This document shows, piece by piece, positions 1-47,940 of a stretch of 64,000 bases of DNA (the first letter of the stretch is position 1; the number at the start of each line of letters is the position of its first letter). Location: positions 29,723 to 93,722 of the forward strand of contig JAZRSA010000050.1 in assembly GCA_045651205.1 (NCBI GenBank), given 5' to 3'. The notes beneath the pieces were generated by a model. That model was not told where the DNA came from, did not search any database, and saw only the letters and a list, made by a program, of their open reading frames with translations. The translations under genes and the position numbers were made by a program. This DNA comes from Clostridia bacterium (GTDB taxonomy: Bacteria; Bacillota; Clostridia; TANB77; CAG-465).

Positions 1-484
1 ACCAAGTTATATCTCCCTTTATATTACTTGATGTTACTGTAATATTTTTAGTAATAGGTCCATTTGTAACATCCCCAGTCAATGTGGTTGGTGCTATTGC
101 TAAAGTCGCATCAGATGTTCCTAATGAAATTACCAAATTAGATTCTCCATCTTGCATTATATTTACTACATATCCAGTTTTTGTAGTTACTGTTTTACTA
201 TAATCTGGATTTATTATTTCATTTAGTTCTATAATTCCTTTGTTTTTCAATTCCGCAATATAACTATCTACCGTTATCTCGCCAAAACTTCTACCTAACA
301 GTTGATTCTTTACTGTTATTAATCTAGTATATTCACTTTCATAATTTGTATCACTTACTACATTTTTTGAACGTCCTATTATTCCACTATCTTCTAATGC
401 AATTATTACTGCCGCTGCAAGTATTGCCATTACAAGTATAGTTATACTCAGAACTATCATTGAAATTCCTTGTTTCTTATTCAT
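1..484 (-). CDS. Pilin-like N-terminal domain protein, paralogue A. Partial: the C-terminus lies beyond the window start.
   Basis: Reverse translation from ATG (complement of 482-484) gives MNKKQGISMIVLSITILVMAILAAAVIIALEDSGIIGRSKN.... This is near-identical to the N-terminus of the 46594..47940 protein. RBS AAGAGGTAG lies upstream. The ORF runs off the window edge. Confidence 0.6.
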   Translation of the reverse strand, partial: MNKKQGISMIVLSITILVMAILAAAVIIALEDSGIIGRSKNVVSDTNYESEYTRLITVKNQLLGRSFGEITVDSYIAELKNKGIIELNEIINPDYSKTVTTKTGYVVNIMQDGESNLVISLGTSDATLAIAPTTLTGDVTNGPITKNITVTSSNIKGDITW

Positions 485-505
485 ATATCTACCTCTTAAA
501 ATATT

Positions 506-536
506 ATAAGATTAGTTTATATCAAACTAATCTTAT
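506..536. terminator. Perfect 13-bp stem hairpin (ataagattagttt / aaactaatcttat) between the thioesterase stop and the pilin-like gene start. Weak U-tract, so it may be a terminator or a regulatory hairpin.
   Basis: Inverted repeat read directly from the sequence. Confidence 0.4.
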
Positions 537-556
537 AGTCAATTAATACTTAATAT

Positions 557-1279
557 TTATATCATTTCAATTAATGCATGTACCGTTTTATCGTCTTCGC
601 TTGTTATTACTATAATATGCTTATCATCTACATTTGCATATTTACATTTTACTATTTCGCCTAATTTTATTTCTTTTTTATATGTTATTCTAACATCGTT
701 AAATAGTCTTTTTTCATATACTTCATCTGGTAAAACTTCATACGCTAAATCTAAATAATAAAGATTATGCATATGCCCTATGAAATCTATATCTTTTCTT
801 CTTACAGTATACAATATTTCGTTTGTATATGTTTCAGGAATTTTTATTTTTTCTAATTCTTCTTCAAACACTCTATTTTCTGGTTCAGATTGATACTTAG
901 ATATCATTTCTTCATCTGGTTTTACTATGCTTCCTTTTTCTGTATTTATTAACAACCATTTAGATGTTCCAATTACACAAAGTTCGCCTTTAGAATTATA
1001 CATTTTGAAATCTCTACTTGCATAGTATTTTTCTATACTTGCAGACCAAGTATCTATTGTTAGTTCTTCACCATATTCTATTCTTTTTATAGATTTTATT
1101 TTCCATTCTAAAAGTATCCAAGATAAATGTGTTTCATTGCTATTATTTAATCCATAACCAAGGCTATCTGAATGATGTCCTGCTATGTTTTCAAAAAATT
1201 TAAGAATAGCTTTATTACCCAAAATATTGTCTTTTTCTATATCTTTTAATCCAATTTTAACCGTTTCCTTAAATATCAT
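557..1279 (-). CDS. Acyl-[acyl-carrier-protein] thioesterase (double hot-dog fold, FatA/B-like)
   Basis: 240 aa with two hot-dog-like halves. Motifs NIAGHHSDSLGY and IGHMHNLYYLDLAYE resemble the acyl-ACP thioesterase family. Lies downstream of fmt. Confidence 0.6.
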   Translation of the reverse strand: MIFKETVKIGLKDIEKDNILGNKAILKFFENIAGHHSDSLGYGLNNSNETHLSWILLEWKIKSIKRIEYGEELTIDTWSASIEKYYASRDFKMYNSKGELCVIGTSKWLLINTEKGSIVKPDEEMISKYQSEPENRVFEEELEKIKIPETYTNEILYTVRRKDIDFIGHMHNLYYLDLAYEVLPDEVYEKRLFNDVRITYKKEIKLGEIVKCKYANVDDKHIIVITSEDDKTVHALIEMI

Positions 1280-2244
1280 ATGAATAGTTCTCCTGTTTGT
1301 ATTTTACCACCACGGATGTAATCTCCGCAGTTCATAAGTTTAGAACCAGCTGGTTTTATTTCCTTTAAGTTAATAAATCCATCATTACACTTTACTGCTA
1401 GTATGTTCTTTTTATCGTTTAGATATACAACTTCTCCACATTTTGCAGCACTATAATCTTCTTCTAATTCCACTCTTTCAGCAAGATATATCTTGTATGT
1501 TTTTTCTTCATCTATTAAACACCAAGCCGATGGAAATGGATTTGTTCCTCTAATTAAATTTACAAGTGTGTCTACATCTTTTGTAAAATCTAATTTTGTA
1601 TTATCTTTTTCTAACATTGGAGCCATTGTACATTCATCTGGTTGAACAGTGCTTTCAAGCACTCCATCATTTGCTAGTAATCTTTCTAAATCTTTTACAA
1701 GTGTGTTTGCGCCTAAAACCATCAATTTATCATGGAGTGTGCCATATGTATCTAACGGCTCTATTTCTACTTCTGCTTTAGTTATCATATTACCTGTATC
1801 CATACCTTCATCCATAAACATAGTAGTTACACCTGTAACTTTATCTCCATTTATTACAGACCATTGTATAGGAGCTGCTCCTCTATAGTTTGGAAGTAAT
1901 GAGCCATGTACATTTATGCATCCAAATCTAGGGAAGTCTAATACATACTTAGGAAGTATTTTTCCATATGCGACAACTACTATTAAATCCGGATTTAATG
2001 TATTTAACATCTCTTTTACTTCTTCATTATTTCTTAATTTAACTGGTTGATATACAGGTATATTATGTGACTCAGCATATTCCTTTACAGGAGGAGCCAT
2101 AAGCTTCATACCTCTGCCCTTTGGTTTATCTGGTTGGCAGAATACTCCTACAACATTAAAAGCGTTATCTACTAACGCTTCTAAACTTCCTTTTGCATAA
2201 TCCGGAGTACCCATAAATACTATTCTTAAATCTTGTTTTAACAT
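1276..2244 (-). CDS. fmt: Methionyl-tRNA formyltransferase
   Basis: N-terminal IVFMGTPDYA and the formyltransferase core (HGSLLPNYRGAAPIQW). Conserved priA-def-fmt gene order. Confidence 0.9.
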   Translation of the reverse strand: MLKQDLRIVFMGTPDYAKGSLEALVDNAFNVVGVFCQPDKPKGRGMKLMAPPVKEYAESHNIPVYQPVKLRNNEEVKEMLNTLNPDLIVVVAYGKILPKYVLDFPRFGCINVHGSLLPNYRGAAPIQWSVINGDKVTGVTTMFMDEGMDTGNMITKAEVEIEPLDTYGTLHDKLMVLGANTLVKDLERLLANDGVLESTVQPDECTMAPMLEKDNTKLDFTKDVDTLVNLIRGTNPFPSAWCLIDEEKTYKIYLAERVELEEDYSAAKCGEVVYLNDKKNILAVKCNDGFINLKEIKPAGSKLMNCGDYIRGGKIQTGELFI

Positions 2245-2256
2245 TTATGTTATATC

Positions 2257-2808
2257 CTACTTTCTTTTACATTTTTTATTTTTCTTGTTTGCCTTTTCTT
2301 GTTCTTTTCTTTCTAATTCTTCGGCTTCACGTTTTGCTGCTTCTATTTCTTCATCGCTTAATTTATATACATCATAAGCTTTGTCTAAGAAAAGCACGCC
2401 ATCTAAGTGATCAATCTCGTGGCAAAGAATGACAGCCTCTAAATCTTCTGCTTTTATTGTTTGTTTCTTGCCATCTATATCAAAATACTCAACTGTAACA
2501 GTTTTAGGTCTATCTACATTTCCAAATACATTTGGTGAACTTAGACAGCCTTCTTCACCAGTTTGTGAACCAGATTTTTTAGTAATAACTGGGTTAATTA
2601 ACACTCTTGGTCCTGTTCCTGGATCTATTACAATTATTCTTTTAAGTATTCCTACTTGTGGCGCAGCAAGTCCAACACCATCATATTTATACATAGTATC
2701 TATCATATCTAGTGCTAACTCACGTATTTTATTGTCTATTTCTTCTATTTCTCTAGAGCGTTTTCTTAAAACTTCATCTGTATCATATCTAACATTTCTA
2801 ATTGCCAT
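2257..2808 (-). CDS. def: Peptide deformylase with a Lys-rich C-terminal tail
   Basis: Motifs GVGLAAPQVG, EGCLS and HEIDHLDG. Unusual C-terminal extension ...ERKEQEKANKKNKKCKRK. Confidence 0.9.
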   Translation of the reverse strand: MAIRNVRYDTDEVLRKRSREIEEIDNKIRELALDMIDTMYKYDGVGLAAPQVGILKRIIVIDPGTGPRVLINPVITKKSGSQTGEEGCLSSPNVFGNVDRPKTVTVEYFDIDGKKQTIKAEDLEAVILCHEIDHLDGVLFLDKAYDVYKLSDEEIEAAKREAEELERKEQEKANKKNKKCKRK

Positions 2809-2833
2809 ATTTTATTCCTTCTATTCTTTTTAT

Positions 2834-5083
2834 TTATCCAAGTCTTACAGGGTTCTTTACAACTGATGCTGTAACACTTACATCTTTAATTTTATCATAA
2901 ATATCCATATTTTCAATGAGTTTGTCTAAAACTTTGTTATCTACTTTAGTTTTAATTATCATTTGTATTCTATATTTGTTATTTATTTTACTTACAAAAG
3001 GAGCTTTAGGAGAATATACTTTATACAAATTCTTCTCTTTGTTAAATATATTATATATTTTTTCACTATCCTTCATAAGCTTTGCTTTATCCTTAGATGT
3101 TAGTTCTACTACGACTATATCTACAAACGGTGGATATCCCGCCATCTGTCTAAATTTAATTTCTTGTTCGTAAAAATCTAAATATGAGTTTTCACTTACA
3201 GAACTTAAGATATAGTTTTCTGTATCGTAAGCTTGAAGAATAACTCTACCTTTTTTGTCTCCACGACCAGCACGTCCTGCTACTTGAAGCAGATTAGAAA
3301 AAGCTTTTTCTGAAACAGTATAATCATCTCCTGCCATATAGTCTGCATTAACTACACCTACAAGTGTAACATTTGCTATGTCATGGCCCTTGCTTATCAT
3401 CTGAGTACCAACAAGAACATCTACATTCTTATCCTTGAACTCATTTAATATTCTTTCGTGCGAACCTCTCTTTACAGTTGTGTCCATATCTAATCTTAAT
3501 GTAGTTATTCCTGGGAATGTTTCTAAAAGTTCTTTTTCGACTCTTTCAGTTCCCATTCCACCTTCTTCTAAAGTGTCTGCTGAACATATTGGACAAACAT
3601 CACTTAACTTTTCACAATACGAACAATAGTGACAAAGCAGCAGTCCATTCTTTCTATGGTATGTTAAATTAACATCACAATTAGGACATCTGAGTGTCTT
3701 TCCACATGTTTTACAAGTTATGTATGAAGAAAAGCCACGTCTATTTAAGAATACAAAAGCTTGCTCTTTCCTTTTTAAATTTTCTTCAATTTCCTCTTTA
3801 AGTCTTGTAGATAATATTCTAGATTTGTTTATAACTGCATCTTGTTTCATATCTACAATCTCTACTTCTGGCACTACACTTGTACCAGGTCTTGTTAGCA
3901 TAGAATAATAGTCTATCTTTTCTTCCATAGCTTTATACATCGTACATACATCTGGAGTTGCTGAACCTAATACAAGATTTGCATTATTTAGATATGCAAG
4001 TCTTGTTGCAACCTCGCGTGTATTATATTTTGGTGTAGTCTGTGATATATAGCTTGAATCGTGTTCTTCGTCTATTATTATTAATCCTAAATTCTTAAAT
4101 GGTACAAACAGTGCTGATCTTGGCCCTATTACTATTTTTGCTTTACCATTTACAATTCTTTTATATTCTGTTTGTCTTTCTAAAGCAGTCATTTTACTAT
4201 GAAGTACTGAAACTACTTCTCCAAAACGAGATATAAATCTACGTTTTGTTTGGTCTGTTAAAGATATTTCAGGTACAAGTACTATTGCATCTTTTCCTCT
4301 GTTTAAACACTCTTCAATTATTTGCAAATATACTTCTGTTTTGCCACTACCTGTAATACCATGTATTAAAGATACTTTGAAAGTTTCTAGATTTCTAATT
4401 ATTCCATCAATAGTTCTTTTTTGTTCTCTTGTTGGAATTAGTTTTTCTGTTCTTGCTATTTTAGAATAATCTTCAATTGTAGTATCTTGTTTTATAAGTT
4501 TTATATATCCTTTTTCTTGTACCGTTTTAATTATATTTCTAAAAATACCAAGTGTATTAATTATATCTTCTATTGGTATATTGTTGTTTTCTTCAAGTTC
4601 TCTTAATAGCTTAATATGTCTTGCGCTTGTTATCTTTTTACATTCTATATCTTGTTCTATTTCTTCTTTAGTTCTATCTAATGTTACAACTGTTATTTGC
4701 TTACCCACTAATTCTTTTTGTTCTAACTTTTTATTTGGCGTTGGTGGTAACATTAATTTAAATGCCGTATATACGTTACAAAAGTACATTTTAGACATCC
4801 ATTTAGCAAGGCTAAGTCTTTTCTCATCTAAATAGCTATTTTCATCTAAAATCTCTTCTATACATTTTAATTTATCTAGCTTGTCCGATTCTTCATCTTT
4901 TAATATTTTAACAATTATGCCTTCACGGCTACTTCCTTTTCCACTTCCAAAATTTACTCTTACTCTTTTTCCAATCTCTACATCTTGTTCGTGTTCAGAC
5001 TTAATTTTGTAATCATAAACCTTATTAAGTTTATGTACCGCATTATCTATTAAAATTTTAACTACCACCAAATCACCTCCCAA
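2834..5083 (-). CDS. priA: Primosomal protein N' (replication restart helicase)
   Basis: 749 aa. Walker A GITGSGKT, DEEH box (IIIDEEHD). Cys-rich zinc-binding region CKTCGKTLRCPNCDVNLTYHRKNGLLLCHYCSYCEKLSDVCPIC. Confidence 0.92.
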   Translation of the reverse strand: MGGDLVVVKILIDNAVHKLNKVYDYKIKSEHEQDVEIGKRVRVNFGSGKGSSREGIIVKILKDEESDKLDKLKCIEEILDENSYLDEKRLSLAKWMSKMYFCNVYTAFKLMLPPTPNKKLEQKELVGKQITVVTLDRTKEEIEQDIECKKITSARHIKLLRELEENNNIPIEDIINTLGIFRNIIKTVQEKGYIKLIKQDTTIEDYSKIARTEKLIPTREQKRTIDGIIRNLETFKVSLIHGITGSGKTEVYLQIIEECLNRGKDAIVLVPEISLTDQTKRRFISRFGEVVSVLHSKMTALERQTEYKRIVNGKAKIVIGPRSALFVPFKNLGLIIIDEEHDSSYISQTTPKYNTREVATRLAYLNNANLVLGSATPDVCTMYKAMEEKIDYYSMLTRPGTSVVPEVEIVDMKQDAVINKSRILSTRLKEEIEENLKRKEQAFVFLNRRGFSSYITCKTCGKTLRCPNCDVNLTYHRKNGLLLCHYCSYCEKLSDVCPICSADTLEEGGMGTERVEKELLETFPGITTLRLDMDTTVKRGSHERILNEFKDKNVDVLVGTQMISKGHDIANVTLVGVVNADYMAGDDYTVSEKAFSNLLQVAGRAGRGDKKGRVILQAYDTENYILSSVSENSYLDFYEQEIKFRQMAGYPPFVDIVVVELTSKDKAKLMKDSEKIYNIFNKEKNLYKVYSPKAPFVSKINNKYRIQMIIKTKVDNKVLDKLIENMDIYDKIKDVSVTASVVKNPVRLG

Positions 5084-5099
5084 CTATGACAAAAGAGGG

Positions 5100-5660
5100 T
5101 TATCTACCCTCCCACTTGCCATATTCTTCAATTATTCTATTTGCTGCTTCTTCTGGAGTTAAATCTGACGTATCTATTACATAATCATAATTATCTAGAT
5201 CATGTATGTCTACATCATATAACTCTAAATATCTTTGTTTTTCCGACTCTTCACGAGCAAGTATTGCATCGTGAGCATCTTCTATAGATTCATACTTTTC
5301 TTCTTTTCCTCTGCTTTTAGAAGCCTCGAAAAGTCTTTTACTTGCAACATCTAGCGTAGATGTCATGTATACTTTAAATGCGTTAGGCGCAATATAGAAA
5401 CCAAGTCTTGCATCAATTATAATTTTATTGCTAGTTTCAACTTTAGCTTTTGTATTAAGCTCTACTTGTTTATCTATATCTGGATTTTTGTCTACATAGC
5501 GACTAAATTCCACTAAACTCATATTTTTTTGTCTAGCAAGTTCTCTAAATGATGTACTTGCTTTATAAAGTTCAAATCCTAGTTTATTTGCAACTATTTT
5601 TGCAACCTCAGTTTTCCCAACAGCTATATTTCCTGTTATACATATCATCTGTTTTTTCAT
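5100..5660 (-). CDS. P-loop NTPase, cytidylate-kinase-like family. Not guanylate kinase.
   Basis: N-terminal ICITGNIAVGKTEV (Walker A). Size and overall composition resemble cytidylate-kinase-like (AAA_18/Cytidylate_kin2) proteins. Sits between rpoZ and priA, where gmk/coaBC are usually found. Confidence 0.5.
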   Translation of the reverse strand: MKKQMICITGNIAVGKTEVAKIVANKLGFELYKASTSFRELARQKNMSLVEFSRYVDKNPDIDKQVELNTKAKVETSNKIIIDARLGFYIAPNAFKVYMTSTLDVASKRLFEASKSRGKEEKYESIEDAHDAILAREESEKQRYLELYDVDIHDLDNYDYVIDTSDLTPEEAANRIIEEYGKWEGR

Positions 5661-5674
5661 ATATTTTCCTCTTA

Positions 5675-5914
5675 TTATTCAACAACATCCTCTATTATTA
5701 CGTCTGCTATTTGTTCTTGTTCGTTCATCGCTACAGTTACTTTTCCTGCATCAATTTCTTTAGTAGCTACATCTACTGGATCAGATATATCTGGATCTCC
5801 TTCTTCTACTCTTTTATTAGAAATTTGTCTTGCTCTTTTAGCAACTGCAAGTGCCACTTCGTATCTAGTTCCTACTTTTGGCATTACATCGTTTACGCTT
5901 GGTTTTGCTAACAT
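5675..5914 (-). CDS. rpoZ: DNA-directed RNA polymerase subunit omega
   Basis: 79 aa. The RYEVALAVAKRARQI motif is typical of RpoZ. Confidence 0.85.
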   Translation of the reverse strand: MLAKPSVNDVMPKVGTRYEVALAVAKRARQISNKRVEEGDPDISDPVDVATKEIDAGKVTVAMNEQEQIADVIIEDVVE

Positions 5915-6099
5915 TGTTATTCCTCCTAAATCAATACTACAAATATTTTAACATACCCTATATATTTTTGCAATAATTTCTAGTTAAATACAACATATAA
6001 AAATATTTGTTTAAAACAAACTAACTATTGTTTTTTTATTTTGTTTATTATACAATTTATGTGTAAGATTATATATTTTATATTATACGGAGGATAAAA

Positions 6100-7827
6100 A
6101 TGGGTTATTCAAATTTGGAACACTTTAAAGAAACACTTAATGCTTCAGATTATTTTGTTGGCATAACCGAATCGTTAATAGATAAATTATTAGAATATGA
6201 ATATATTTCATCATTTAAATTATCTCATTATTTACGCAAACTAACAGATAATATTGCAGAATTAAGAATAGATACAAATAATCCTTATGAATACAAAACA
6301 GGATACTATGACGCAAACAAAAAAGAAATGTACATAAAAAGCACTAGAAATGTTTCTGCTACATATCTTCGTTTGTTATATGCGCTAACAACAACAGAAG
6401 TAGATAATAATGTATATGAATCAGGATATGCAACAACAAAACTATCTACAGAAAATTATAAACTATGTCATTATAATTTTGGTATAAACCGTGCTATAAT
6501 GTCTAATTTAGTATATAAACTTTGTAACTTATTACCTTCTTCTATACAAATATCAGAAATGCAACAAACAAGCACTCATAACTTTTTAGGCTTTAAAATA
6601 GAATCACAAAACGATATGTATTTCTTAGAAGGCAAAATTTTAAGTGAATTGTGTTATGTTTTAGATTTAGATCCAGAACTATTATATCGCGGACTATTTA
6701 CTAGACATCCAATGAAAGTTTTAAATAGAGCTTTTAGAAAGAAAAAATTCAAACGTTCTGACGATTTTCTAATTGTATTAGATGGCATTAGTAGAAAATA
6801 TTCTACATATAACAAACTTGTATTCTTATCTCAAAAACTAAACGAAAACTATGTAGAATACAAGAAAAATGTCTTAACAAGCGACGTTAATGATATAAAC
6901 AATGAGAAAGCTTTAATAGAACAAGAAATCGCAGATGTTTTAGCTAAATTCAAAAGGGATACTACCCCTAAAGAAATTGTTGAATCTGACGATGAAGCAA
7001 TTATTGAAGAAGATTTAGATGAAGTTCTAGACTATACTTCTAGCCTAGCTGAAACAATTCAAAAATTATATGATGATTTAAGAGAACAAATTATATATAT
7101 ACAAGATATATTAGCAGAACAACTTATAGAAAGTTCTAAAAATTTATCTTATACATTATATGCTAGCAAGCTAAAATGTTTTAACAATATATTAATTGTT
7201 CCTAATAAAAGGCTTTCAGATAAAATCGAAGAAATTATAACATTTAAGCTTATGCCAGAATCTGAAGTTACTGGTAGCAACCTAATAGATAAAATCAAAT
7301 ATGCTCTAATCGAACAAATACTTGCAGAAAAAGATTATTCGGATATCTCTAATACCTTCTCTTTCTACAATATAGATTCATTAGAAAACGCGGAAAACGG
7401 TTCTTGTTTAATTATATTAAATTATTCTAAACCGCCATCTAAAATATTAGAAGTTTCTGGTTTAGACGAATCAGGTCATAATTATACAATTACACCTATT
7501 CCTTTAGACAATTTAAGTCATATTATGAATACTGGTTATTCCACATTCTTTGTTGGTAACATTGAAAAACTATATACAGATTTAAAGAATAATTTTAAAA
7601 AGTTTTCTAATGTTCCATTAGACCAAATATATGTTTTTGAATATAACTCTAAAAAATATTTATTGTTACAAACAAACGGAATACCACATATAGTTGCTTT
7701 CTCTACACAAGAAGTACGCAACTTTGGCATTCAACCGTTATCTGAAAAATATAAAGTATTTGGCAAATCTGTTGTTAAGACTAAAAGCAAATCAACAACA
7801 ACTCTACCTACTTTATATAAAAAATAA
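6100..7827 (+). CDS. Hypothetical 575-aa soluble protein. No recognisable domain.
   Basis: Long ORF with RBS GGAGGA 6 nt upstream of the ATG. Host-like AT-rich codon usage. No TM segments, no Walker motif. Ends at a bidirectional terminator. Confidence 0.6.
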   Translation: MGYSNLEHFKETLNASDYFVGITESLIDKLLEYEYISSFKLSHYLRKLTDNIAELRIDTNNPYEYKTGYYDANKKEMYIKSTRNVSATYLRLLYALTTTEVDNNVYESGYATTKLSTENYKLCHYNFGINRAIMSNLVYKLCNLLPSSIQISEMQQTSTHNFLGFKIESQNDMYFLEGKILSELCYVLDLDPELLYRGLFTRHPMKVLNRAFRKKKFKRSDDFLIVLDGISRKYSTYNKLVFLSQKLNENYVEYKKNVLTSDVNDINNEKALIEQEIADVLAKFKRDTTPKEIVESDDEAIIEEDLDEVLDYTSSLAETIQKLYDDLREQIIYIQDILAEQLIESSKNLSYTLYASKLKCFNNILIVPNKRLSDKIEEIITFKLMPESEVTGSNLIDKIKYALIEQILAEKDYSDISNTFSFYNIDSLENAENGSCLIILNYSKPPSKILEVSGLDESGHNYTITPIPLDNLSHIMNTGYSTFFVGNIEKLYTDLKNNFKKFSNVPLDQIYVFEYNSKKYLLLQTNGIPHIVAFSTQEVRNFGIQPLSEKYKVFGKSVVKTKSKSTTTLPTLYKK

Positions 7828-20621: not shown

Positions 20622-20697
20622 CGCGGGGTAGAGCAGTCGGCAGCTCGTCGGGCTCATAACCCGAAGGTCACAGGTTCAAGTCCTGTCCCCGCAACCA
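20622..20697 (+). tRNA. Initiator tRNA-fMet (anticodon CAT), CCA-encoded
   Basis: Cloverleaf folded by hand. Acceptor CGCGGGG/CCCCGCA with a C1:A72 mismatch. Anticodon stem ends in three G-C pairs (GGG/CCC). Loop CTCATAA, T-loop TTCAAGT, 3' ACCA. Confidence 0.9.
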
Positions 20698-20704
20698 TAT
20701 TAAA

Positions 20705-20730
20705 AAGAAGAGTGAATAATCACTCTTCTT
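20705..20730. terminator. Bidirectional terminator after tRNA-fMet (stem aagaagagtga / tcactcttctt plus TTTTTTG)
   Basis: Read directly. Also terminates the convergent 20737..21621 gene. Confidence 0.75.
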
Positions 20731-20736
20731 TTTTGT

Positions 20737-21621
20737 TTATTTGTTTTCTACTGCTTCAACAACTTCTTTTTTATTTTTTCCTTTAAAGTGTGGCATTTTA
20801 GGTTTTATTTCATTTACTGATATAGTTACACCAAATATTAGTTTTACAACCCATAACATTATAAACAACACTCCCATTGGTATTACACATGATGTAATTA
20901 GTAATATTGCTAACGCATTCATAAAGTTGCTTAATAAATCTTTACCTTTTTCTAGCAGTTTTTCTACAGAATTCCCAACACTAGAAACAACATTAGAAAC
21001 TGTACCTGTTATCTTGTCCCATAAGTTTGTTTCAGTTTTTTCATCCTCTTTTTCTTCAACTTTGTTATTTTGAACATCCGTAGCACTTTCAATAGTTTTA
21101 GATATTGTAGTACCATATGTGTCTTCAATAAACATACTTAGTTTCACACTAACTGGCACTATTGTAAATATAACAAGTCCAAATGCCGCCAATTTAAATG
21201 CTAAAACTTTTAACTTTTCTTTCTTTGTAAATAAATAAGTTGCACATAACACACATGCTGCTGGTATTAAAATCAAGAATGTTAATTTACCAGTAAGTGT
21301 AAGCAATATCTTTTCTAAAAATATTACTCCTAACACAATTAACAAGTATCCACTCATATCCATAAGTTGGTTTGCTATTGGTGTCGTTGCATCTCCAGGC
21401 GCTGCTGCAAGTATTGTCGCCGCTCCCGCTGTTGCTGCAGTAAGTCCAATAACTTGTCCTTCTTTTTTATTTAAGTGCTCAATAGATCCGTTATGGAATT
21501 CCGGTTCACCAAAAACTTTAGCCAAAGGGAACATTGATACTACTGCTAATATAATCAATCCTATTGCAACACCTATTTTAATTAATATTTCCTTATTGTT
21601 CATAAAAAACTCTTTGTTCAT
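20737..21621 (-). CDS. Hypothetical integral membrane protein
   Basis: 294 aa with multiple TM helices and an Ala/Gly/Thr-rich segment (GLTAATAGAATILAAAPGDATTP). No known motif recognised. Confidence 0.4.
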   Translation of the reverse strand: MNKEFFMNNKEILIKIGVAIGLIILAVVSMFPLAKVFGEPEFHNGSIEHLNKKEGQVIGLTAATAGAATILAAAPGDATTPIANQLMDMSGYLLIVLGVIFLEKILLTLTGKLTFLILIPAACVLCATYLFTKKEKLKVLAFKLAAFGLVIFTIVPVSVKLSMFIEDTYGTTISKTIESATDVQNNKVEEKEDEKTETNLWDKITGTVSNVVSSVGNSVEKLLEKGKDLLSNFMNALAILLITSCVIPMGVLFIMLWVVKLIFGVTISVNEIKPKMPHFKGKNKKEVVEAVENK

Positions 21622-25737: not shown

Positions 25738-27450
25738 TTAACCATCGATTCCAGGTCCGTCGAAAGTATCCATTTCTACTACCTCTGAAACTGTTTTTTC
25801 TCCTACAGTTGTATCTATTTCTTCTGGTGGATATACACCAGCAGCTAAAGTATCTTTCATGTCCACAGTTCCTGGAGTTACTGTACCACCTTCAGCTACA
25901 ACTTCTGGTGTAGATTCTTTTTTAGTACTTCTTTCGCTTTCTGAAGATAATGCTGCTATTATCATTGCATCTCTTGCAACGTCAGATAATCCTTCTGTTG
26001 CTTCTCTTCCAGCTCTTTCTACACTTGATCTTACTCCATCTTCTACTGAAGTATCACGTGATGAAGCTTCAGGTAAAGATAATGATCTTCCTAATCCTGA
26101 AAACCAAGATAATGGATTTCTGCTTCTTGTTCTCTTAACTTCAGAATATGTATCTAATGCTGTTCTAAAGCCTTTCATTGTTTCTAATTCAGCAATCGCT
26201 CTATCTCTTAAAGTTACTTCGTCAGCTGTTAATTCTTCACCACTAGCAACTTTAGCTTCCGCTGCAGCTACAACTTTTTCGAAAACAGATTGTCCTCTTG
26301 TCTTAGCTTCCTTATTTCCTAAGAATCCTTTTATTCCGCTCCAACTTCTTACTTCAGAACTTGCTACAATATTTTCGCCAGTTTCTGTTTTAGCATCTAT
26401 TCCATAAGTAGCGTTGATTGCTCTTAGAGCTTCTGGATATTTTCTAGTCATTTCACTTCCCATTGCAACAAGTATTACTTTTGCTTTATTTCTAAATAAT
26501 CCAGTAGAAATTCCAAATTTTTCATAACATGTTGGGTCAGCCATTATAACTTCTAATTTTTTCATATCTTCAACACCTAAACATCTTTGTTTAGCTGCTC
26601 TATATATCTCATCAAATTCTGCATAGCTCATATCTCTTGGATCTGTTGGCGCAGCTGGTGCTACTGTCGCAGTTCCACCTGGAGCTGTTGTCGCAGTTCC
26701 ACCTGGCACTGATGTTGCAGTTCCGCCTGGAACTGTTGTTGCAGTTCCGCCTGGCACTGATGTTGTAGTTCCGCCTGGAACTGTTGTTGTAGTTCCACCT
26801 GGAACTATTGTTTCATCTTCACCTGGAGTTTCTTTTTTATCATCTCCCGGAGTTTCTTTTTTATCATCTCCTGGAGTTTCTGTTACACCTCCACCTACTT
26901 CTTCTTTTGGTCCAAAATTCTTTTTAGCTCTTTCAATTCTTTTTTCTAATTTAGTTAATGAATCTATTTCTTCTGGCGTAAATACACCTTTATCTTTGAA
27001 TATATTCATTATTGGTATTAACTTTTTATTATTTTCTTTTATTTCTCTTTTTGCTGCATTTATTGCTCTTGTAGCAAGACGCATTTCTTTTTCAATACCT
27101 TTTATTTCAGCTTGGTATATTCTTATTTTATCTTTATCTCCTGCTTCGCCTTTAGCTTCTTCTTCAGCTATTACCGCTTGTAATTCTTCTATTCTAGCTT
27201 TAGATTTTTCTAAAAACTCATTGTTAGTTGCCATTTTTTCTTCTAAACCATGAATGGCATCCATTATATCTTGTTTTGCCTTTACACCAAGTTCAACAAT
27301 ACTTTCCTCAAGGCCAGAAATTGCTTTATCAAAACCAGCAACTATATTAGCTCTTTCATCATCTGACAAATCATCTCTTCCTTCTGCAGCTGCCTTATCT
27401 GCAACAAGCTTTTGATATTGTTCTTCTAATATTTCGTAATCTTTTCCCAC
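25738..27450 (-). CDS. Hypothetical 570-aa protein. N-terminal coiled-coil domain, (ETPGDDKK)3 and (VPGGTxTT)6 repeats, unknown C-terminal domain. Higher GC.
   Basis: GTG start with strong AGGAGG RBS. No signal peptide or TM. Internal in-frame repeats. G+C visibly above the flanks. Confidence 0.6.
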   Translation of the reverse strand: MGKDYEILEEQYQKLVADKAAAEGRDDLSDDERANIVAGFDKAISGLEESIVELGVKAKQDIMDAIHGLEEKMATNNEFLEKSKARIEELQAVIAEEEAKGEAGDKDKIRIYQAEIKGIEKEMRLATRAINAAKREIKENNKKLIPIMNIFKDKGVFTPEEIDSLTKLEKRIERAKKNFGPKEEVGGGVTETPGDDKKETPGDDKKETPGEDETIVPGGTTTTVPGGTTTSVPGGTATTVPGGTATSVPGGTATTAPGGTATVAPAAPTDPRDMSYAEFDEIYRAAKQRCLGVEDMKKLEVIMADPTCYEKFGISTGLFRNKAKVILVAMGSEMTRKYPEALRAINATYGIDAKTETGENIVASSEVRSWSGIKGFLGNKEAKTRGQSVFEKVVAAAEAKVASGEELTADEVTLRDRAIAELETMKGFRTALDTYSEVKRTRSRNPLSWFSGLGRSLSLPEASSRDTSVEDGVRSSVERAGREATEGLSDVARDAMIIAALSSESERSTKKESTPEVVAEGGTVTPGTVDMKDTLAAGVYPPEEIDTTVGEKTVSEVVEMDTFDGPGIDG

Positions 27451-29782: not shown

Positions 29783-29812
29783 TCCTTTTAGTATAAAAGC
29801 TAGAATATAGTA

Positions 29813-29840
29813 AAACCGAGTAAGATATCTTACTCGGTTT
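29813..29840. terminator. Bidirectional rho-independent terminator (aaaccgagtaaga tat cttactcggttt plus T-run)
   Basis: Read directly. Confidence 0.8.
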
Positions 29841-29873
29841 TATTTTTATATTTATTAATTATATTGACTAATT

Positions 29874-30887
29874 TCATTTTATTAAAGTAAAGTCTGTTGT
29901 TGTTCCAACTTTGGCAAGTATACTTGCTTTTAAACAAATAACCGGTTGTACTTCTTTACTAGCAGTATATCCTGCGTATGCTAATTCGCTTGATGAAAAA
30001 CTCATTACTCCGCTTAAAGAAGAATATACAGGCGAAGCCATCCATACATAGTTGTTCTTTGATACATATGGTTTTTTACCATTTATTCCACCGATGCTTG
30101 CTCCACCATTTATTTTATACCCCAATGGTCCCAATGTTATTTCTATTTTAGGTTGATATCCTTTTGCATTCCATCCTGCCACTAGCAATTCTATAGTTGG
30201 TCCACCTATTGCTCCCACTACATTTTCGCCATAAGTCTCTGCATTTGCGAAATTAGAATAGTCTTTTATTAGTTTAACTACCGCCTTACTACTGTTAGCA
30301 TCATTATTACTTATTCTATCTGCTAAAATGAATTTTTCAAACTCTCCAACTCTAAATATATCATATAGTTCTTTTTCTTTTTCTGTTAAATCAGTTACTG
30401 AATAATTTGTAATCAAATCTGTATTGCCAACATTTTCTGCTGAAATTAAATATACATATTCGCTATTATGATAATATATTTCCCATTTGTCATACTTTGT
30501 TCCATCGACTGTAACAACATAATCTACTGTATCACCATAATTATCTGGTGTTATCAAAGAACCTAATGGTTGAATAGAAGTTTTATTTATAACATCTACT
30601 CCGTTTTCAGTTACTATTATATTCCATTTATCTTCTGTAACTCCTTGATTTGCAAGTTCTTGTTTTACAATTGTTGTAATATTATTTTTCTTTGCCTCAT
30701 CTAAATATGCATCCATCCATATTATTGTAGCTAATTCTTGCACCTGCTTTTCATTGTTTAAATCAACCCCTTGATTTGCTTTATTTATTATATTTGTGTT
30801 ACTTAATGTAATTACTACACTTGCTGCTAATATTATCATTACTATTATTGTTATAACTAATACTATTAACGATATTCCTCTTTTCAT
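29874..30887 (-). CDS. Pilin-like N-terminal domain protein, paralogue B (337 aa)
   Basis: N-terminus MKRGISLIVLVITIIVMIILAASVVI parallels the type IV prepilin signal (G-F-T-L-I-E-L...ILAA) but has Val at +5. The mature region is homologous to 37138..37728. Confidence 0.55.
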   Translation of the reverse strand: MKRGISLIVLVITIIVMIILAASVVITLSNTNIINKANQGVDLNNEKQVQELATIIWMDAYLDEAKKNNITTIVKQELANQGVTEDKWNIIVTENGVDVINKTSIQPLGSLITPDNYGDTVDYVVTVDGTKYDKWEIYYHNSEYVYLISAENVGNTDLITNYSVTDLTEKEKELYDIFRVGEFEKFILADRISNNDANSSKAVVKLIKDYSNFANAETYGENVVGAIGGPTIELLVAGWNAKGYQPKIEITLGPLGYKINGGASIGGINGKKPYVSKNNYVWMASPVYSSLSGVMSFSSSELAYAGYTASKEVQPVICLKASILAKVGTTTDFTLIK

Positions 30888-37137: not shown

Positions 37138-37728
37138 TTAAAAATCCTCAGCGGAAGCTTTTGGAACATAATTTCCAGCTACGATTTCTTCATTCATATA
37201 AAAACTTTTTTGTGTAGTTTCTTCAACCATTGGCCACCCACCCGGTGTATAAACGTTAATATTTGTATCGTCCGGACTCATTACAAATTCATATTGTAAT
37301 TTTTTCCCTTCTCCATACCATATAAAATCATACCATGTTGTTCCTTTATCGACGGTATACTCCACATTCAAAAATGTAAATGTAACTTTCTCCGCTGATG
37401 TATTATTTTTAGATGTAACCACAACACCTGTGTCAGATACTGTTATATTCCAATTTGTATCTGTTATACCTTGTGCTGCAAGAGCATCTTTAACAGCCTT
37501 TTCCATTGTATCTGTTCTAGACTCATCTAAATAAGCTTCCGCCCAAGCTAATGCCGCTAAATCTTGTACCTGCTTTTCATCTGTAAGTTGTACTGCTTGA
37601 CCAGCTCTGTCTATAATTCCATTATTACTCATAGCTATAACAACAGCCGCTGCCAATATTATCATTACTATTATTGTTATTACTAAAACTATTAAACTTA
37701 TTCCCTTTTTCATTAGTTTAACCTCCAT
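37138..37728 (-). CDS. Pilin-like N-terminal domain protein, paralogue C (196 aa)
   Basis: MKKGISLIVLVITIIVMIILAAAVVIAM, then DEKQVQDLAALAWAEAYLDES, homologous to paralogue B. Confidence 0.55.
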   Translation of the reverse strand: MEVKLMKKGISLIVLVITIIVMIILAAAVVIAMSNNGIIDRAGQAVQLTDEKQVQDLAALAWAEAYLDESRTDTMEKAVKDALAAQGITDTNWNITVSDTGVVVTSKNNTSAEKVTFTFLNVEYTVDKGTTWYDFIWYGEGKKLQYEFVMSPDDTNINVYTPGGWPMVEETTQKSFYMNEEIVAGNYVPKASAEDF

Positions 37729-37809
37729 ATATATTTAGTCTATTACAAAACATATTTTTAAGCAATACATATATAAAAAAAGCATCATTTTTTGATGCTT
37801 TTTGTTTCT

Positions 37810-41341: not shown

Positions 41342-41506
41342 AAATTCATTTCTCCTTAATTGAAATAACAATATATTTTGTATATTCCAACACATGTGTA
41401 TTATACCACTTTATATACACATTTGCAAGAAATATACAATTAGTACATTTTGTTAAATTATATATAAAAACATCTAAACACAACTGTATTTAGATGTTAA
41501 TTTATT

Positions 41507-42445
41507 TTATTCTTTTAATTTAGAAATATCCTCATAAGATAATTCTGTTATTTCAACTATCTCATTAATTTCCATGCCTTTTTTTAATAACTTTTTAGCT
41601 ATTTCTTTTTTGCTTTCTTTCTCGCCCTGTTCAATTCCTTGCTTGATTCCTTGTTCAATTCCTTGCTTGATTCCTTGCTCAATTCCTTGCTCAATTCCTT
41701 TTTCAAGCCCAATTCTAGTTGCCTCTTCAGTTGCATATGACAAAGCTGCTTTTTCGTCACGAATATACTTTTGTTTAAGCTCAGCTATTCTTCTTATTTC
41801 ATAATCCCCACTTACACTTCTTAATTCTTCTTTTGCTTCTTTAACTCCTGTATTTTTTTCCATGATACAATCTACCTCCTTAGAATTTGGATCATCAAAA
41901 AACATCATCCATTGGCATATTCTATCTTCCTTATTTTCCAAATACAATTTCTTTGCCTTTGGTAATTCTATTATAATTAATTCAAATTTATTTGTCAATA
42001 ATTTCATACCAGTAGTGTTGTCTCTCATTTGCCATTTTGTATTTATTTTTTCAACATCTTTTAATTCATTAACTTCATGATCTACTATTACTATACTTAT
42101 ACATCTATTTATTTCTTTGTATTCTTCTCCATAATCTAATTGTCTTGAATATGTGTCTGCCAGATAATATAGAAATCTATCACATTCATTTTTATATTTC
42201 TTTATCTGTATTTCTACATTACAATTAGTGTGATCTTCTAGTTCTACTCTTAAATCCATTATTCCCAACTTTTCTTCTGCTGCTTTTATATCCATGTATC
42301 TATCTAAGTTTGCTATTATTTTTACTTTTTCTTCTAATACATCTGTTAAAAAAGCTTCTGTTAATCTGTTATTTGATTCCCTAAATAGTGCGTGAAATAC
42401 TATGTCTATTTTAGGGCTTAACAATTCTATCTCTTTATTTTCCAT
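41507..42445 (-). CDS. Rpn-family recombination-promoting nuclease / putative transposase (PD-(D/E)XK, YhgA-like) with C-terminal GIEQG repeats
   Basis: N-terminal PD-(D/E)XK-like core (IDIVFHALFRE...DLRVEL...) and (GIEQGIKQ)n tail typical of this family. Confidence 0.65.
   Translation of the reverse strand: MENKEIELLSPKIDIVFHALFRESNNRLTEAFLTDVLEEKVKIIANLDRYMDIKAAEEKLGIMDLRVELEDHTNCNVEIQIKKYKNECDRFLYYLADTYSRQLDYGEEYKEINRCISIVIVDHEVNELKDVEKINTKWQMRDNTTGMKLLTNKFELIIIELPKAKKLYLENKEDRICQWMMFFDDPNSKEVDCIMEKNTGVKEAKEELRSVSGDYEIRRIAELKQKYIRDEKAALSYATEEATRIGLEKGIEQGIEQGIKQGIEQGIKQGIEQGEKESKKEIAKKLLKKGMEINEIVEITELSYEDISKLKE
41626..41708. repeat. 15-bp in-frame tandem repeat (TTGYTCAATTCCTTG)x~5 encoding GIEQG/GIKQG units of the Rpn-like protein
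   Basis: Read directly. Confidence 0.8.
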
Positions 42446-42643
42446 TTACTTACCTCCTATTTTGAAAAAACTAATATATGATTAAATTTATTTGAATTAA
42501 AAAAACTTTGAAAATAAAATACTTTTGACTTAATACATTTGAATAAATTATATTGGAGCTAAAGTAAAGATATTATATCTCCAAAACACAGTAACTGCAA
42601 GAAAAATCGTTCGTCAAGTTTTGACTAAAATCTTCAAAAAAAG

Positions 42644-42672
42644 AAAAAAACACCTAAATATATTTTTATATT
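42644..42672. terminator. Terminator hairpin (cacctaaatata tttt tatatttagatg, one mismatch) downstream of ligA, with T-runs on both strands
   Basis: Read directly. Confidence 0.55.
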
Positions 42673-42704
42673 TAGATGTTTTCTTTTTAATCTATATTAT
42701 TTAA

Positions 42705-44744
<2,040 letters not shown>

Positions 44745-44769
44745 TTACCTCTTATAACAACCATAAATA

Positions 44770-45498
44770 TTATTGTCTAATATCTATATATTTTCCACAT
44801 TTTCTTACATAGTCTATTGTAGACCAAACTGTAAATATTACTGCACCAATTAATGAAATGCTAAATCCTACATTTAGTAGTAATTCTCCAAATCCCATCA
44901 ATCTTCCTTGTGTAGACATGAATTTAAATAATCCATTAGTATCTAATAATCCTAAAGTTATTGTTACCATTTGGAATGCAGTTTTAATTTTTCCATAAAC
45001 ACCTGCAGAAATTGTAACACCTGCTTCTGTACCGAACATTCTTATTGTATTTAATAAGAAATCTCTACATACTACTAAAACTGTTACCCATGCTGGAACT
45101 ACACCTAAACCTGTTAACATTATAAATCCTGATGCAACTAATATCTTATCTGCTAATGGATCCATAAGTTTTCCAAATCTAGTTACTATATTTTTCTTTC
45201 TTGCTATCTTTCCATCAACCCAGTCAGTTAATGATGCTAGTATAAATATACCTAATGCTATATATCTTAATCCTACCCATAAATCTTCCAATAATAATAG
45301 AACTACAAATACTGGTACTAAGCATATTCTAATTACTGTAAGTATGTTTGGTAGATTTATTTTTTCTTTCTTTACTTTTTCTTTCTTTTCCACCTTAACT
45401 TCAGCAGCTACTTCTTCTACCGCTTCAACTTTTACTTCTTCTTTAACTTCGTTTATTTCTACCTTTAATTCTTTTTCCTTTTTTGCTGATTTTTTCAT
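44770..45498 (-). CDS. pgsA: CDP-diacylglycerol--glycerol-3-phosphate 3-phosphatidyltransferase with ~50-aa Lys/Glu-rich N-terminal extension
   Basis: CDP-alcohol phosphatidyltransferase motif DWVDGKIAR...GKLMDPLADK. Preceded by NLPNILTVIRI. Confidence 0.8.
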   Translation of the reverse strand: MKKSAKKEKELKVEINEVKEEVKVEAVEEVAAEVKVEKKEKVKKEKINLPNILTVIRICLVPVFVVLLLLEDLWVGLRYIALGIFILASLTDWVDGKIARKKNIVTRFGKLMDPLADKILVASGFIMLTGLGVVPAWVTVLVVCRDFLLNTIRMFGTEAGVTISAGVYGKIKTAFQMVTITLGLLDTNGLFKFMSTQGRLMGFGELLLNVGFSISLIGAVIFTVWSTIDYVRKCGKYIDIRQ

Positions 45499-45633
45499 TT
45501 TAAATCTCCCTCTCTAATGCAATTATTATATTACATGAACACATATATTTCAAGTAGTAAACTATGTTAAATTAAAGTCTAGTAATTTATTTTAATATGG
45601 TATATAATTTAAAACAAATAAAGGAGTAAACAA

Positions 45634-45942
45634 ATGGAATACATATATTTTGGAGCATATTTTTTAATAATTAACATCATAGGATTTGTTATGATGTATT
45701 CAGATAAACAAAAAGCAAAAAAAGATCAATATAGAACGCGAGAAAAATCTTTCTTTGTTGTTTCTCTTCTTCTAGGCGGAATTGGAACATATATTGGCAT
45801 GTATAAATTTAGGCACAAAACACGTCACAATCTATTTACAATAGGAATTCCTGTTATGATAGTAATAAACATAGTTAGTATATATTTTATCCTTACAGAA
45901 GGATACCTTTTCTATATAGCTGAAATAATTAAAACAATGTAA
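45634..45942 (+). CDS. Small membrane protein, DUF1294-like
   Basis: 102 aa. The MYSDKQKAKKDQYRTREKSFFVVSLLLGGIGTYIGMYKFRHKTRH pattern resembles DUF1294. Confidence 0.5.
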   Translation: MEYIYFGAYFLIINIIGFVMMYSDKQKAKKDQYRTREKSFFVVSLLLGGIGTYIGMYKFRHKTRHNLFTIGIPVMIVINIVSIYFILTEGYLFYIAEIIKTM

Positions 45943-45998
45943 AGAAAATATATAAAAAAGAAATAATAAAATCACTTGTTATACATAATATATAACAG

Positions 45999-46559
45999 GT
46001 GATTATTTTGTTTAATTTAACTTATAAAAACGTAATTAAAATAGGATATGCAATATGCTTAGTAGCCGGCTTTCTACTTCACTTTGCATATGATTTCTTT
46101 AACGACAACTTTATTATTGGATTATTTACTCCAGTAAATGAAAGTGTTTCTGAACATCTAAAACTTATCTTCTTGCCATTTACATTATTTACAATATTCT
46201 TCTACTTCTACTCTAAAAAGAAGTTAACAAATGTATTTCTAACATCCTTCATAGCAAACATATTAGGTATACTTGCAACAACTATTTCTTTTTATATAGG
46301 AATACAATTCTTAGGAATGAACAACACTATCTTTAACATTGGCACATATATAATAGGTATGACTATATCTTTTATTACATTCTATCTAGGTCTATACATC
46401 GATACATTTCAAGATGCCACAAAAGATTCGAATGCACTTGGAATATGTACACTTCTACTTCTTACAACATTATTTATAGTTAATACATTACTACCACTCA
46501 AACTACCTATTAACAAAGATCCTGTAACAAGTACTTATGGATTGTTTAAGATAAAATAA
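45999..46559 (+). CDS. Hypothetical polytopic membrane protein
   Basis: 186 aa with ~6 hydrophobic helices. Ends at a terminator. Confidence 0.45.
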   Translation: MIILFNLTYKNVIKIGYAICLVAGFLLHFAYDFFNDNFIIGLFTPVNESVSEHLKLIFLPFTLFTIFFYFYSKKKLTNVFLTSFIANILGILATTISFYIGIQFLGMNNTIFNIGTYIIGMTISFITFYLGLYIDTFQDATKDSNALGICTLLLLTTLFIVNTLLPLKLPINKDPVTSTYGLFKIK

Positions 46560-46560
46560 A

Positions 46561-46590
46561 ACACAGAAACAAATAGTTTCTGTGTTTTTA
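46561..46590. terminator. Bidirectional terminator (acacagaaac aaata gtttctgtgt plus TTTTTA)
   Basis: Read directly. Confidence 0.75.
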
Positions 46591-46593
46591 TTA

Positions 46594-47940
46594 TTAACCA
46601 GTACATACTACGCTACTAACTTCAACTAAAGGTGAATTATAATCATACCAATATGTTCCTTTAGATACCTTGTTCCAATTAGTTGTTGTTCCTTTATATG
46701 TTATGCTTTTTAAATAACAACCTGAAAAAGCATAATTCCCTATTGAAGCTATTCCCGTATTAAATGTTAATTTTTCCAAATTTTCCGCATTTTCAAAGGC
46801 AGAACCAGCAATTGTTGTAACATTACTTGGTATTTCCACCTCTTTTAATCCCTCTGCAAAATAAAAAGCTGAACCATCTATAGTTTTTACAGTTGATGCT
46901 ATCTTTAAATCTGCTGTACTATTCCTACCTCCTATACTAGTTAAAGAAGTACATCCATAGAACATTTCAAATGGGATTTTTTCCCAACCTTCGGGTATTG
47001 TTACATTGTTTAATTTTTCACATCTCAAAAATATAGACTCTCCAAATGTTTTTATATTATTTGAAATTTCTATACTACAACCACTACCTATAGTACCAAT
47101 GCTAGTAAAATTGCAATATGCAAGAGAATAATCTCCTATCTCAGTTACACTATTAGGTATTACGATTTTTGTTATTTTATCACAATTTTCAAACATATGG
47201 TCCCCTACCACAGTTAATCCATATGGTAATGTTGCAGTTTCAAGATTTGCCGCACCATAAAACCAATAAGTAGTATAATTAGGGATAGCTCCTTCTTCAA
47301 ATACAACATCTATTATATTAGACATTTCTGAAAGCCATGGCACTTCATCATAGTAATATTCTGCCGTTTTCCATCCAGTGTACGTTTTTGTACTTCCATC
47401 ATTTTTATATAAAGTTGATATTCCATTAGCAGCAAAAACAAAAGTCCCTGCATCATATACTGTAACAGGCGGTTCTTCATCTTCTGGAATAGTCGGATTG
47501 TTGTTATTGTTATTGTTATTGTTATTGTTATTGTTATTATTGTTTGCAATACCATCAAATACTATATTTATATCATTGCCTCCATTTTGAGAAATTGTTA
47601 CATTAAAACCACTTTTTGTTGTTACTTTCTTACTTCCATCTGCATTTGTTATTACTCCAGATTCTATTATTCCTTTATTTGTTAACTCTGTAATATATGT
47701 ATCTACGGTTATTTCACCTAGATTATCTGTAAGTATTCCATTCTTTATTACTTGTAGCCTTGTATATTCTTCATTGTAATTTTGGTTACTTACTGTATTC
47801 TTTGAACGTCCTATTATTCCACTATCTTCTAATGCAATTATTACTGTCGCTGCAAGTATTGCCATTACAAGTATGGTTATACTTAATACTATTAAAGATA
47901 TTCCCTTTCGCATCTTTTGTTTCTCCTTTATTTTATACAT
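46594..47940 (-). CDS. Pilin-like N-terminus + poly-Asn linker + BspA-type leucine-rich-repeat surface protein (paralogue D, 448 aa)
   Basis: N-terminus RKGISLIVLSITILVMAILAATVIIALEDSGIIGRSKN. N16 tract. C-terminal repeats of the BspA-type LRR pattern (...VTEIGDYSLAYC.., ...IPEGWEKIPFEMFYGCTSLTSI..., ...IAGSAFENAENLEKLTF...). Confidence 0.65.
   Translation of the reverse strand: MYKIKEKQKMRKGISLIVLSITILVMAILAATVIIALEDSGIIGRSKNTVSNQNYNEEYTRLQVIKNGILTDNLGEITVDTYITELTNKGIIESGVITNADGSKKVTTKSGFNVTISQNGGNDINIVFDGIANNNNNNNNNNNNNNNNPTIPEDEEPPVTVYDAGTFVFAANGISTLYKNDGSTKTYTGWKTAEYYYDEVPWLSEMSNIIDVVFEEGAIPNYTTYWFYGAANLETATLPYGLTVVGDHMFENCDKITKIVIPNSVTEIGDYSLAYCNFTSIGTIGSGCSIEISNNIKTFGESIFLRCEKLNNVTIPEGWEKIPFEMFYGCTSLTSIGGRNSTADLKIASTVKTIDGSAFYFAEGLKEVEIPSNVTTIAGSAFENAENLEKLTFNTGIASIGNYAFSGCYLKSITYKGTTTNWNKVSKGTYWYDYNSPLVEVSSVVCTG
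47497..47544. repeat. (GTT/ATT)16 trinucleotide microsatellite encoding Asn16 within the pilin-like/LRR gene
   Basis: Read directly. In-frame, so length changes would vary the linker rather than switch the frame. Confidence 0.85.

Follow-up and report, generated by a model that had tools for sequence, protein, structure and literature searches.

The chromosomal DNA analysed here is a stretch of 64,000 nucleotides (contig JAZRSA010000050.1 of a Clostridia bacterium; hereafter, the window) with a GC content of 30%. Its housekeeping genes (PriA, Def/Fmt, SpoIIR, penicillin-binding proteins, MreBCD, RadC, MscL, LigA, SerRS, FtsY, MurF, and Ddl) mark the source as a spore-forming, low-GC organism of the Clostridium class. 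An earlier note on this DNA had drawn attention to four dispersed genes, here called A, B, C, and D, whose products begin like type IV pilins without the glutamate at position +5 (Glu5). The four genes are present as described, each with the reported N-terminus, and a six-frame scan found exactly four copies of the family in the window, all on the minus strand (Table 1). Each N-terminus comprises a short Lys-rich leader, a Gly (position -1), and then ISLIVL(V/S)ITI(I/L)VM(I/A)ILAA; the consensus is [KRQ]-G-I-S-[LM]-I-V-L-x-I-T-I-x-V-M-x-I-L-A-A.

Table 1. Coordinates of the four pilin-like genes, their parts, the neighbouring hairpins, and the PilD fusion genes of related loci (window positions unless a locus is named)
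Feature	Position	Strand	Remarks
Gene A	1..484	-	Partial, 161 amino acids (aa) seen; A/D-subfamily
Gene A signal and alpha1N motif, GISMIVLSITILVMAILAA	410-469	-
Gene B	29874..30887	-	337 aa; motif at 30819-30878
Gene B pilin-like N-module	30579-30887	-	~aa 1-103
Gene B C-terminal domain		-	~aa 105-336; C-type-lectin-like (fold search of B model against PDB)
Gene C	37138..37713	-	191 aa from Met at 37713; open reading frame reaches 37728; motif at 37645-37704
Gene D	46594..47940	-	448 aa; alternative start Met10 at 47913; motif at 47845-47904
Gene D 16-Asn linker	47497-47544	-	Between pilin-like module and leucine-rich repeat (LRR) module
Gene D LRR part		-	BspA-type LRR, C-terminal to the Asn linker; LRR_5, E 1.6e-40
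Bidirectional terminator-like hairpin, downstream of B	29809..29844
Bidirectional terminator-like hairpin, upstream of C	37777..37803
Bidirectional terminator-like hairpin, downstream of D	46558..46588
Bidirectional terminator-like hairpin, upstream of D	47977..48005
PilD N-domain::pilin fusion	L086:5807-6634; L091:5807-6634; L087:5807-6643; L101:9977-10801		Also protein P0382

Pairwise identities uphold the proposed division into two subfamilies, as A and D share 28 of their first 30 residues and 66% identity over 116 aa, while B and C share 25 of 30 and 46% over 153 aa. For gene C, a B/C-subfamily member whose C-terminal part is short, Met6 (coordinate 37713) is the most likely start, in agreement with the database protein P0001 (191 aa, 100% identical to gene C). 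The Asn linker of gene D, which is encoded by an imperfect AAC/AAT repeat, could be a length-variable spacer. The position orthologous to gene A is likewise occupied by a family member in a related genome, RGIG6332 (locus L077). The statement that every copy is bracketed by strong bidirectional terminators holds for both sides of D but for only one side of B and of C, and A has only an AT-rich hairpin that falls below the pass mark of the terminator scan. A Pfam scan of every long open reading frame found no T2SSE, T2SSF, or Peptidase_A24 domain, which agrees with the earlier remark that the window holds no pilus machinery.

Counting four paralogues greatly understates the family, of which there are 15–25 or more copies per genome and thousands in metagenomes. 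A protein search with C gave 618 matches at E<=1e-3, and all of the 120 best matches combine a near-invariant N-terminus of about 20 residues with varied C-termini. A profile run against 1.84 billion metagenomic cluster representatives produced 7064 matches at E<=1e-3, of which 1307 reach 1e-10 and 396 reach 1e-30. Of the 107 new top matches that carry the motif, 105 have Val at +5. One-genome-per-species data yielded 251 confirmed relatives. The best 80 all come from five metagenome-assembled genomes labelled 'Clostridia bacterium' (RGIG6332, RGIG6416, SGB_399, SGB_6434, and SGB_7649), and in each of them 15–25 distinct, dispersed copies occur in the DNA retrieved. These five genomes are syntenic with the window at 85–97% nucleotide identity (87–92% for SGB_6434 and SGB_399, the sources of loci L091 and L034), which places them in its genus. 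Neither Pfam nor NCBIfam has a model for the family, so the earlier judgement that it has no named group stands, and we found no paper containing the motif string. Annotation pipelines label some members 'type II secretion system protein' or 'pseudopilin PulG', which we count in favor of a pilin identity.

The N-terminal motif is not a chance resemblance, because it is near-invariant both in the 120 best database matches and in 106 distinct copies from related genomes. Nine residues (G-1, S2, I4, V5, L6, T9, I10, V12, and M13) are constant in 106 of 106 copies, and the codons at these positions vary: Gly is encoded by GGA in 52 copies and GGT in 49, Ser by both TCN and AGY, and Val5 by GTT in 51 and GTA in 49. 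Since the codons vary freely where the residues do not, the N-terminus is under purifying selection at the level of the protein. A helix that has to fit into a machine or into the core of a filament would be expected to show such selection. Gene conversion and a repeat at the DNA level were both rejected as the source of the N-terminal identity because of the same synonymous variation and because the first 90 nucleotides of the four window copies share only 58–81 of the 90 positions. All-against-all clustering of 1324 genes from 84 loci revealed no conserved partner genes beyond ordinary synteny.

The search for pilB and pilC outside the window that the earlier note had proposed was successful in the congeners. 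At least three congeneric genomes contain a type IVa-like cluster with PilM/N-like, PilB (TIGR02538, 2.5e-115), PilT (TIGR01420, 3.8e-81), and PilC (GspF, 5e-55) genes. In the order common to L086 (GCA_054291765.1, the assembly that also holds the family member of L001), L087/L088, and L091, a 337 aa pilin-like protein (KKG/ITLIN, the slash following the Gly) is succeeded by Asp23, PilM/N-like, PilO-like, and 116 aa proteins, then by a pilin of 124–128 aa, an A24_N_bact protein, and proteins of 144 aa (KRG/ITVSS) and 58 aa (KRG/SATLA), and finally by PilB, PilT, and PilC. The 124–128 aa pilin begins MKKG/ISLIVLVITIIVMIII (MKKGISLIVLVITIIVMIII), and the alpha1N segment of the dispersed family agrees with this small candidate major pilin at 16 of the 17 first residues. 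Leader and alpha1N are therefore common to the dispersed proteins and the small pilins of the system itself, which supports the earlier assignment of A to D to the pilin-type proteins. Family members lie within the clusters of L086, L087, L089, and L091; in L089, which comes from a more distant relative with 24% GC, three small pilins in tandem carry this N-terminus. A modular member stands directly past pilC in three of the four clusters read, namely L086, L091, and the partly read L034, where the PilC-type gene, an orthologue of those in the other clusters, is directly upstream of the family member at the contig end. Further small pilin-like proteins without Glu5 were seen at L001:4839-5300 (KRG/ITVSTLSIAIV), where the gene adjoins an RND-adaptor-like gene, at L059:20202-20654 (KRG/VTLITL) and 20655-21011 (KKG/ITMAML), and at L064:16830-17444 (KRG/VSMIVLSITILVMAILAA).

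The proteins are modular. Among 107 members the C-terminal modules include DUF6273 (12), LRR_5 (8), Glug (4), and LRR_8 (3), besides Big_2, Beta_helix, fn3, and DUF285, and most members are without a Pfam match. As in modular pilins, the pilin module of D (LRR_5), of B (C-type-lectin-like), and of members of the wider family is thus followed by a domain that is not specific to pilus biology. Comparison of the window (46594-47940 and 51731-56245) with L036:8800-15100 and L070:5900-11642 showed that the repertoire turns over within the genus. At the D locus the window has its LRR member, SGB_7649 a different member of 357 aa, and SGB_399 only a terminator. Between the ABC-transporter and SerRS genes, SGB_399 has a family member where the window has a YkuD protein, and in SGB_7649 the gap is empty. 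Family genes are thus gained, lost, or swapped between conserved housekeeping flanks, as in a surface repertoire that evolves fast. The YkuD protein itself (51731-56245, minus strand) is 1504 aa long and carries a Sec-type signal and, at the C-terminus, a YkuD L,D-transpeptidase domain, and its gap varies between species.

We consider that the four genes probably encode modular type IV pilins, and that the pilus system to which these belong is lineage-specific, type IVa-like, and able to function in the absence of Glu5. All the proteins comprise a short basic leader ending in the invariant Gly, a hydrophobic alpha1N of about 24 residues, and a predicted helical 'stalk' module of about 100 residues, to which most members add a putatively grafted surface module (BspA-type LRR, C-type-lectin-like, DUF6273, GLUG, Ig-like, or beta-helix). 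The N-terminal helix would insert into the membrane and the leader would be removed after the Gly. The common alpha1N would then serve as a handle by which a single PilB/PilC machine, encoded once per genome elsewhere, extracts the proteins and packs them into or onto a filament of the small Val5 pilin. Many different adhesin-type modules would in this way be carried beyond the monoderm cell wall, where they may mediate adhesion. The alternative offered in the earlier note, a pilin-derived N-terminus used for surface display, comes close to what the data suggest.

The leader and the hydrophobic stretch after it agree with those of type IV pilins. All copies begin with M-(x)-K-[KQR]-G, and about 20 mostly hydrophobic residues (ISLIVLVITIIVMIILAASVVITL) past the presumed cleavage site are predicted to be helical, the helix being unbroken to residue 62 in the model of C. 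The earlier note had described a position-by-position match to the class III signal. By eye the register is indeed kept (G-1, S/T+2, L+3, I+4, L+6, and I15-L16-A17-A18), but the match is statistically weak. AlphaFold2 modelled the isolated N-module of C as a helix of 56 residues (7-62), a second helix (70-80), and a hairpin (88-101), and the fold search with the full model of B against PDB matched only the C-terminal domain; such predicted structures are suggestive at best of a pilin identity. The pilin reading rests on genomic context and not on sequence or fold scores.

Several findings weigh against this reading. PF07963 and TIGR02532 match neither the four proteins nor the cluster pilins at E<=1, alignment with Escherichia coli pseudopilins by hhalign reached only P=0.0037 and 9% probability (with the register correct from the Gly), and no pilin is among the matches of a PDB sequence search, the sole match being weak and BON-domain-like (E 0.05). 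The pilus cluster is known from congeners and not from the assembly of the window, and most copies are unlinked to any machinery. Glu5 is missing from the family, with Val in 106 of 106 locus copies, and in bacterial type IV filaments this residue is considered key for subunit docking and charge neutralisation and normally forms a salt bridge to the N-terminal amine (PMC10191384). Furthermore, the only PilD-like gene is without the Peptidase_A24 (PF01478) aspartyl protease domain. Three regular expressions of the GxGD type, combined with transmembrane filters, and a phmmer search that used E. coli GspO recovered no A24 catalytic domain from about 1.4 Mb of congeneric loci or from about 0.4 Mb of fusion-type (group-1) metagenomic loci. 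No enzyme can therefore be assigned to leader cleavage in the roughly 1.8 Mb sampled. The search method itself works, because the same expression recovered a canonical PilD in an outgroup contig. In the loci sampled, the prepilin peptidase that the earlier note had asked for is thus present only as its methylase-type A24 N-domain, and it is possible that a peptidase is encoded at an unlinked site in these genomes; this has a precedent in Bacillus subtilis, where comC is located at a distance from the comG operon.

The PilD homologue of the cluster retains a full, four-Cys, methylase-type A24 N-terminal domain (PF06750, E 6.7e-28). Its C-terminal half consists of a Lys-rich linker, a prepilin-like motif with an acidic +5 residue (KKG/ALSSE, KSG/VFILE, or KKG/VYITE), and a small pilin-like domain. 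This fused module has the sole acidic +5 motif of the cluster; position +5 is Val in the small pilins and Asn, Ser, Thr, or Ala in the accessory ones. All of the 31 database homologues of the PilD N-domain carry PF06750 only, and a metagenome scan found 34 loci, human-gut contigs included, with the PilD fusion and Val5 pilins. The scan also found a sister group of more than 40 colinear loci (L126-L171, e.g. L129:9642-11709, gut metagenome) with a PilD of about 270 aa in which 'GIDKE' is kept and YxID replaces GxGD. In these loci a separate Asp5 pilin gene comes next and the small pilins, one of only 76 aa, have Ala5 (KG/ITLVALVVTI). The outgroup contig, L162:598-1905, has a canonical PilD (GFGDIK) and then a Glu5 pilin. 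These three locus types suggest a stepwise loss of canonical features. Judging from the gene order, the PilD fusion looks like the product of a deletion that removed the protease half and joined PilD to a downstream pilin gene with acidic +5.

The same observations bear on the other explanations. If the N-terminus were only a pilin-derived signal anchor, neither processed nor polymerised, it would stay uncleaved as a type II membrane anchor that holds the adhesin modules at the surface. Such anchors might dock to the PilC/PilM-N platform or to each other, and the filament made by the pilus cluster would consist solely of the small pilins encoded there. An uncleaved anchor would agree with the protease-less PilD of the cluster and the lack of an A24 protease domain anywhere sampled, with the absence of Glu5, with the dispersed, monocistronic genes, and with the weak fold evidence for a complete pilin domain. 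However, a plain anchor needs neither nine invariant residues nor an invariant Gly at -1 that is kept despite free synonymous change. The small pilins of the cluster, which have the same leader and helix, must be extracted to make a filament, so that a processing route must exist for them, and a modular member sits in an operon directly past pilC. We therefore regard an uncleaved anchor, although it is the strongest of the rival explanations, as unlikely.

The earlier note had suggested GspK-like tip or initiator subunits, and minor pilins of this kind would here cap a filament of canonical Glu5 pilins. Of the subunits of a bacterial type IV filament, only the one that caps the tip lacks Glu5 (PMC10191384), and a location mostly at the tip is assumed for modular pilins (PMC8179133). 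In these genomes, however, the loss of Glu5 extends to almost every pilin of the system, the small candidate major pilins included, so it says nothing about location at the tip. The clusters have no canonical Glu5 major pilin, no G-[FY]-T-L-I-E N-terminus occurs in 1.3 Mb of congeneric loci, and 15–25 or more alternative tip subunits per genome would be unlike GspK. A GspK-like tip or initiator role is accordingly very unlikely in our view. The proteins might instead be substrates of a separate Tad-like (type IVc) system that was seen in one congener; L033:430-6026 (RGIG6332) has a cluster with a TraG/HerA-like ATPase, CpaE-like, CpaF-like T2SSE, and TadB-like T2SSF genes, and no peptidase gene in the part retrieved. 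This cluster lies 4–9 kb upstream of a family member, and the peptidases of Tad systems have no methylase domain (PMC10191384). Yet no family member lies within it, Flp pilins are 50–80 aa long with a G/xxxxEY motif that is absent from the family, and the family N-terminus is found on pilin genes inside a PilB/PilT/PilC cluster at four independent loci, so we give this possibility hardly any weight.

Type IV pilins and modular pilins are already known; what is new is the absence of Glu5 at the level of a whole system, together with a pilin fusion of a PilD that has no protease half. The concept of modular pilins is well established and is exemplified by PilB and PilC of Streptococcus sanguinis (Raynaud et al. 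2021, PMC8179133), and the present proteins resemble them in their class-III-type leader, hydrophobic alpha1N, linker, and grafted adhesin-type module (lectin or LRR), and in the tie of their genes to a monoderm type IVa pilus machine. They differ in having Val for Glu5 and Ile for Phe1, in a pilin module that is helix-rich with only a hairpin, and in numbering dozens of mostly dispersed and monocistronic members per genome, compared with one or two. The signature that defined the published census, IPR012902/TIGR02532, is Glu5-dependent (PMC8179133), and the Val and Ile replacements make this family invisible to it. With canonical type IVa pili and type II secretion systems (PilA, GspG, PilD, PilB, PilC), the system shares the clustering of PilB, PilT, PilC, and PilM/N/O-like genes with small pilins, short basic leaders ending in Gly, and the I15-L16-A17-A18 register. 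Unlike in those systems, the major-pilin candidates have no Glu5 and the PilD homologue has only PF06750, fused to a pilin-like module, without PF01478. The likeness to the tip pseudopilins GspK and PilK is confined to the absence of Glu5 and a size larger than that of the major subunit, whereas here nearly all pilins are without Glu5, the copy number is far higher, and neither a GspI/J/K-type set nor an alpha-domain inserted in the pilin beta-sheet is present. The closest analogue for how the system works may be the archaeal bindosome (PMC3047682). Archaeal class III signal peptide surface proteins, such as the sugar-binding proteins of the Sulfolobus bindosome and archaeal pilins (PMC3047682, PMC4371748), likewise carry a pilin-type signal without a conserved Glu5 on diverse surface proteins and depend on a PilB/PilC-like assembly system encoded elsewhere. 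The present system is bacterial, Clostridial, and based on a type IVa-like machine with PilT and PilM/N, there is no sequence relationship, and a PibD/FlaK-type peptidase was not found in the loci sampled here.

A few other observations were made along the way. In B/C-type N-modules, the helix-hairpin segment at residues ~65-105 (in C, 37399-37520; VKxxLxxQGVTxxxWNIxVSDTGVTV) weakly resembles the BON domain of the potassium-binding protein Kbp (PDB 7pvc) and EntV (E ~0.05). Window positions 25738-27450 (minus strand) encode an acidic protein of 570 aa with a GTG start, without a Pfam match, and with short tandem peptide repeats (TPGDDKKE about three times and VPGGT[TA]T about six times). The gene at 41507-42445 (minus strand) belongs to a PD-(D/E)XK (PDDEXK_2) transposase family; copies with about 70% nucleotide identity occur at other sites in congeners (L037, L069), and it may be a mobile element.

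Glu5 and a bifunctional PilD peptidase are regarded as features that nearly all bacterial type IV filaments have in common, and a specialist would find a Glu5-less system with a protease-less PilD-pilin fusion surprising. Glu5 substitutions in the Pseudomonas pilin allow cleavage and impair methylation and assembly, which makes a natural Val5 system informative. The Val5 system (with Ala5 in its sister group) and its truncated or degraded PilD protease half are a natural experiment on the roles of Glu5 and N-terminal processing. The family would also provide uncultured Clostridia of the ruminant and human gut with a large adhesin repertoire that evolves fast. Pilin censuses built on the Glu5-containing motif overlook thousands of proteins, with 1307 cluster representatives at E<=1e-10, and the family merits a profile model of its own in place of the labels 'hypothetical' or 'type II secretion system protein'.

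Taken further, and only tentatively, the findings would describe a clade of gut Clostridia, human-gut members included, in which a type IVa-like machine operates with neither Glu5 nor the PilD aspartyl protease. Maturation would be of a non-A24 kind, the PilD N-domain would be repurposed, and the machine would provide a general display path for dozens of interchangeable adhesin modules per genome with fast turnover. If this were true, the system would be a bacterial counterpart of the archaeal bindosome.

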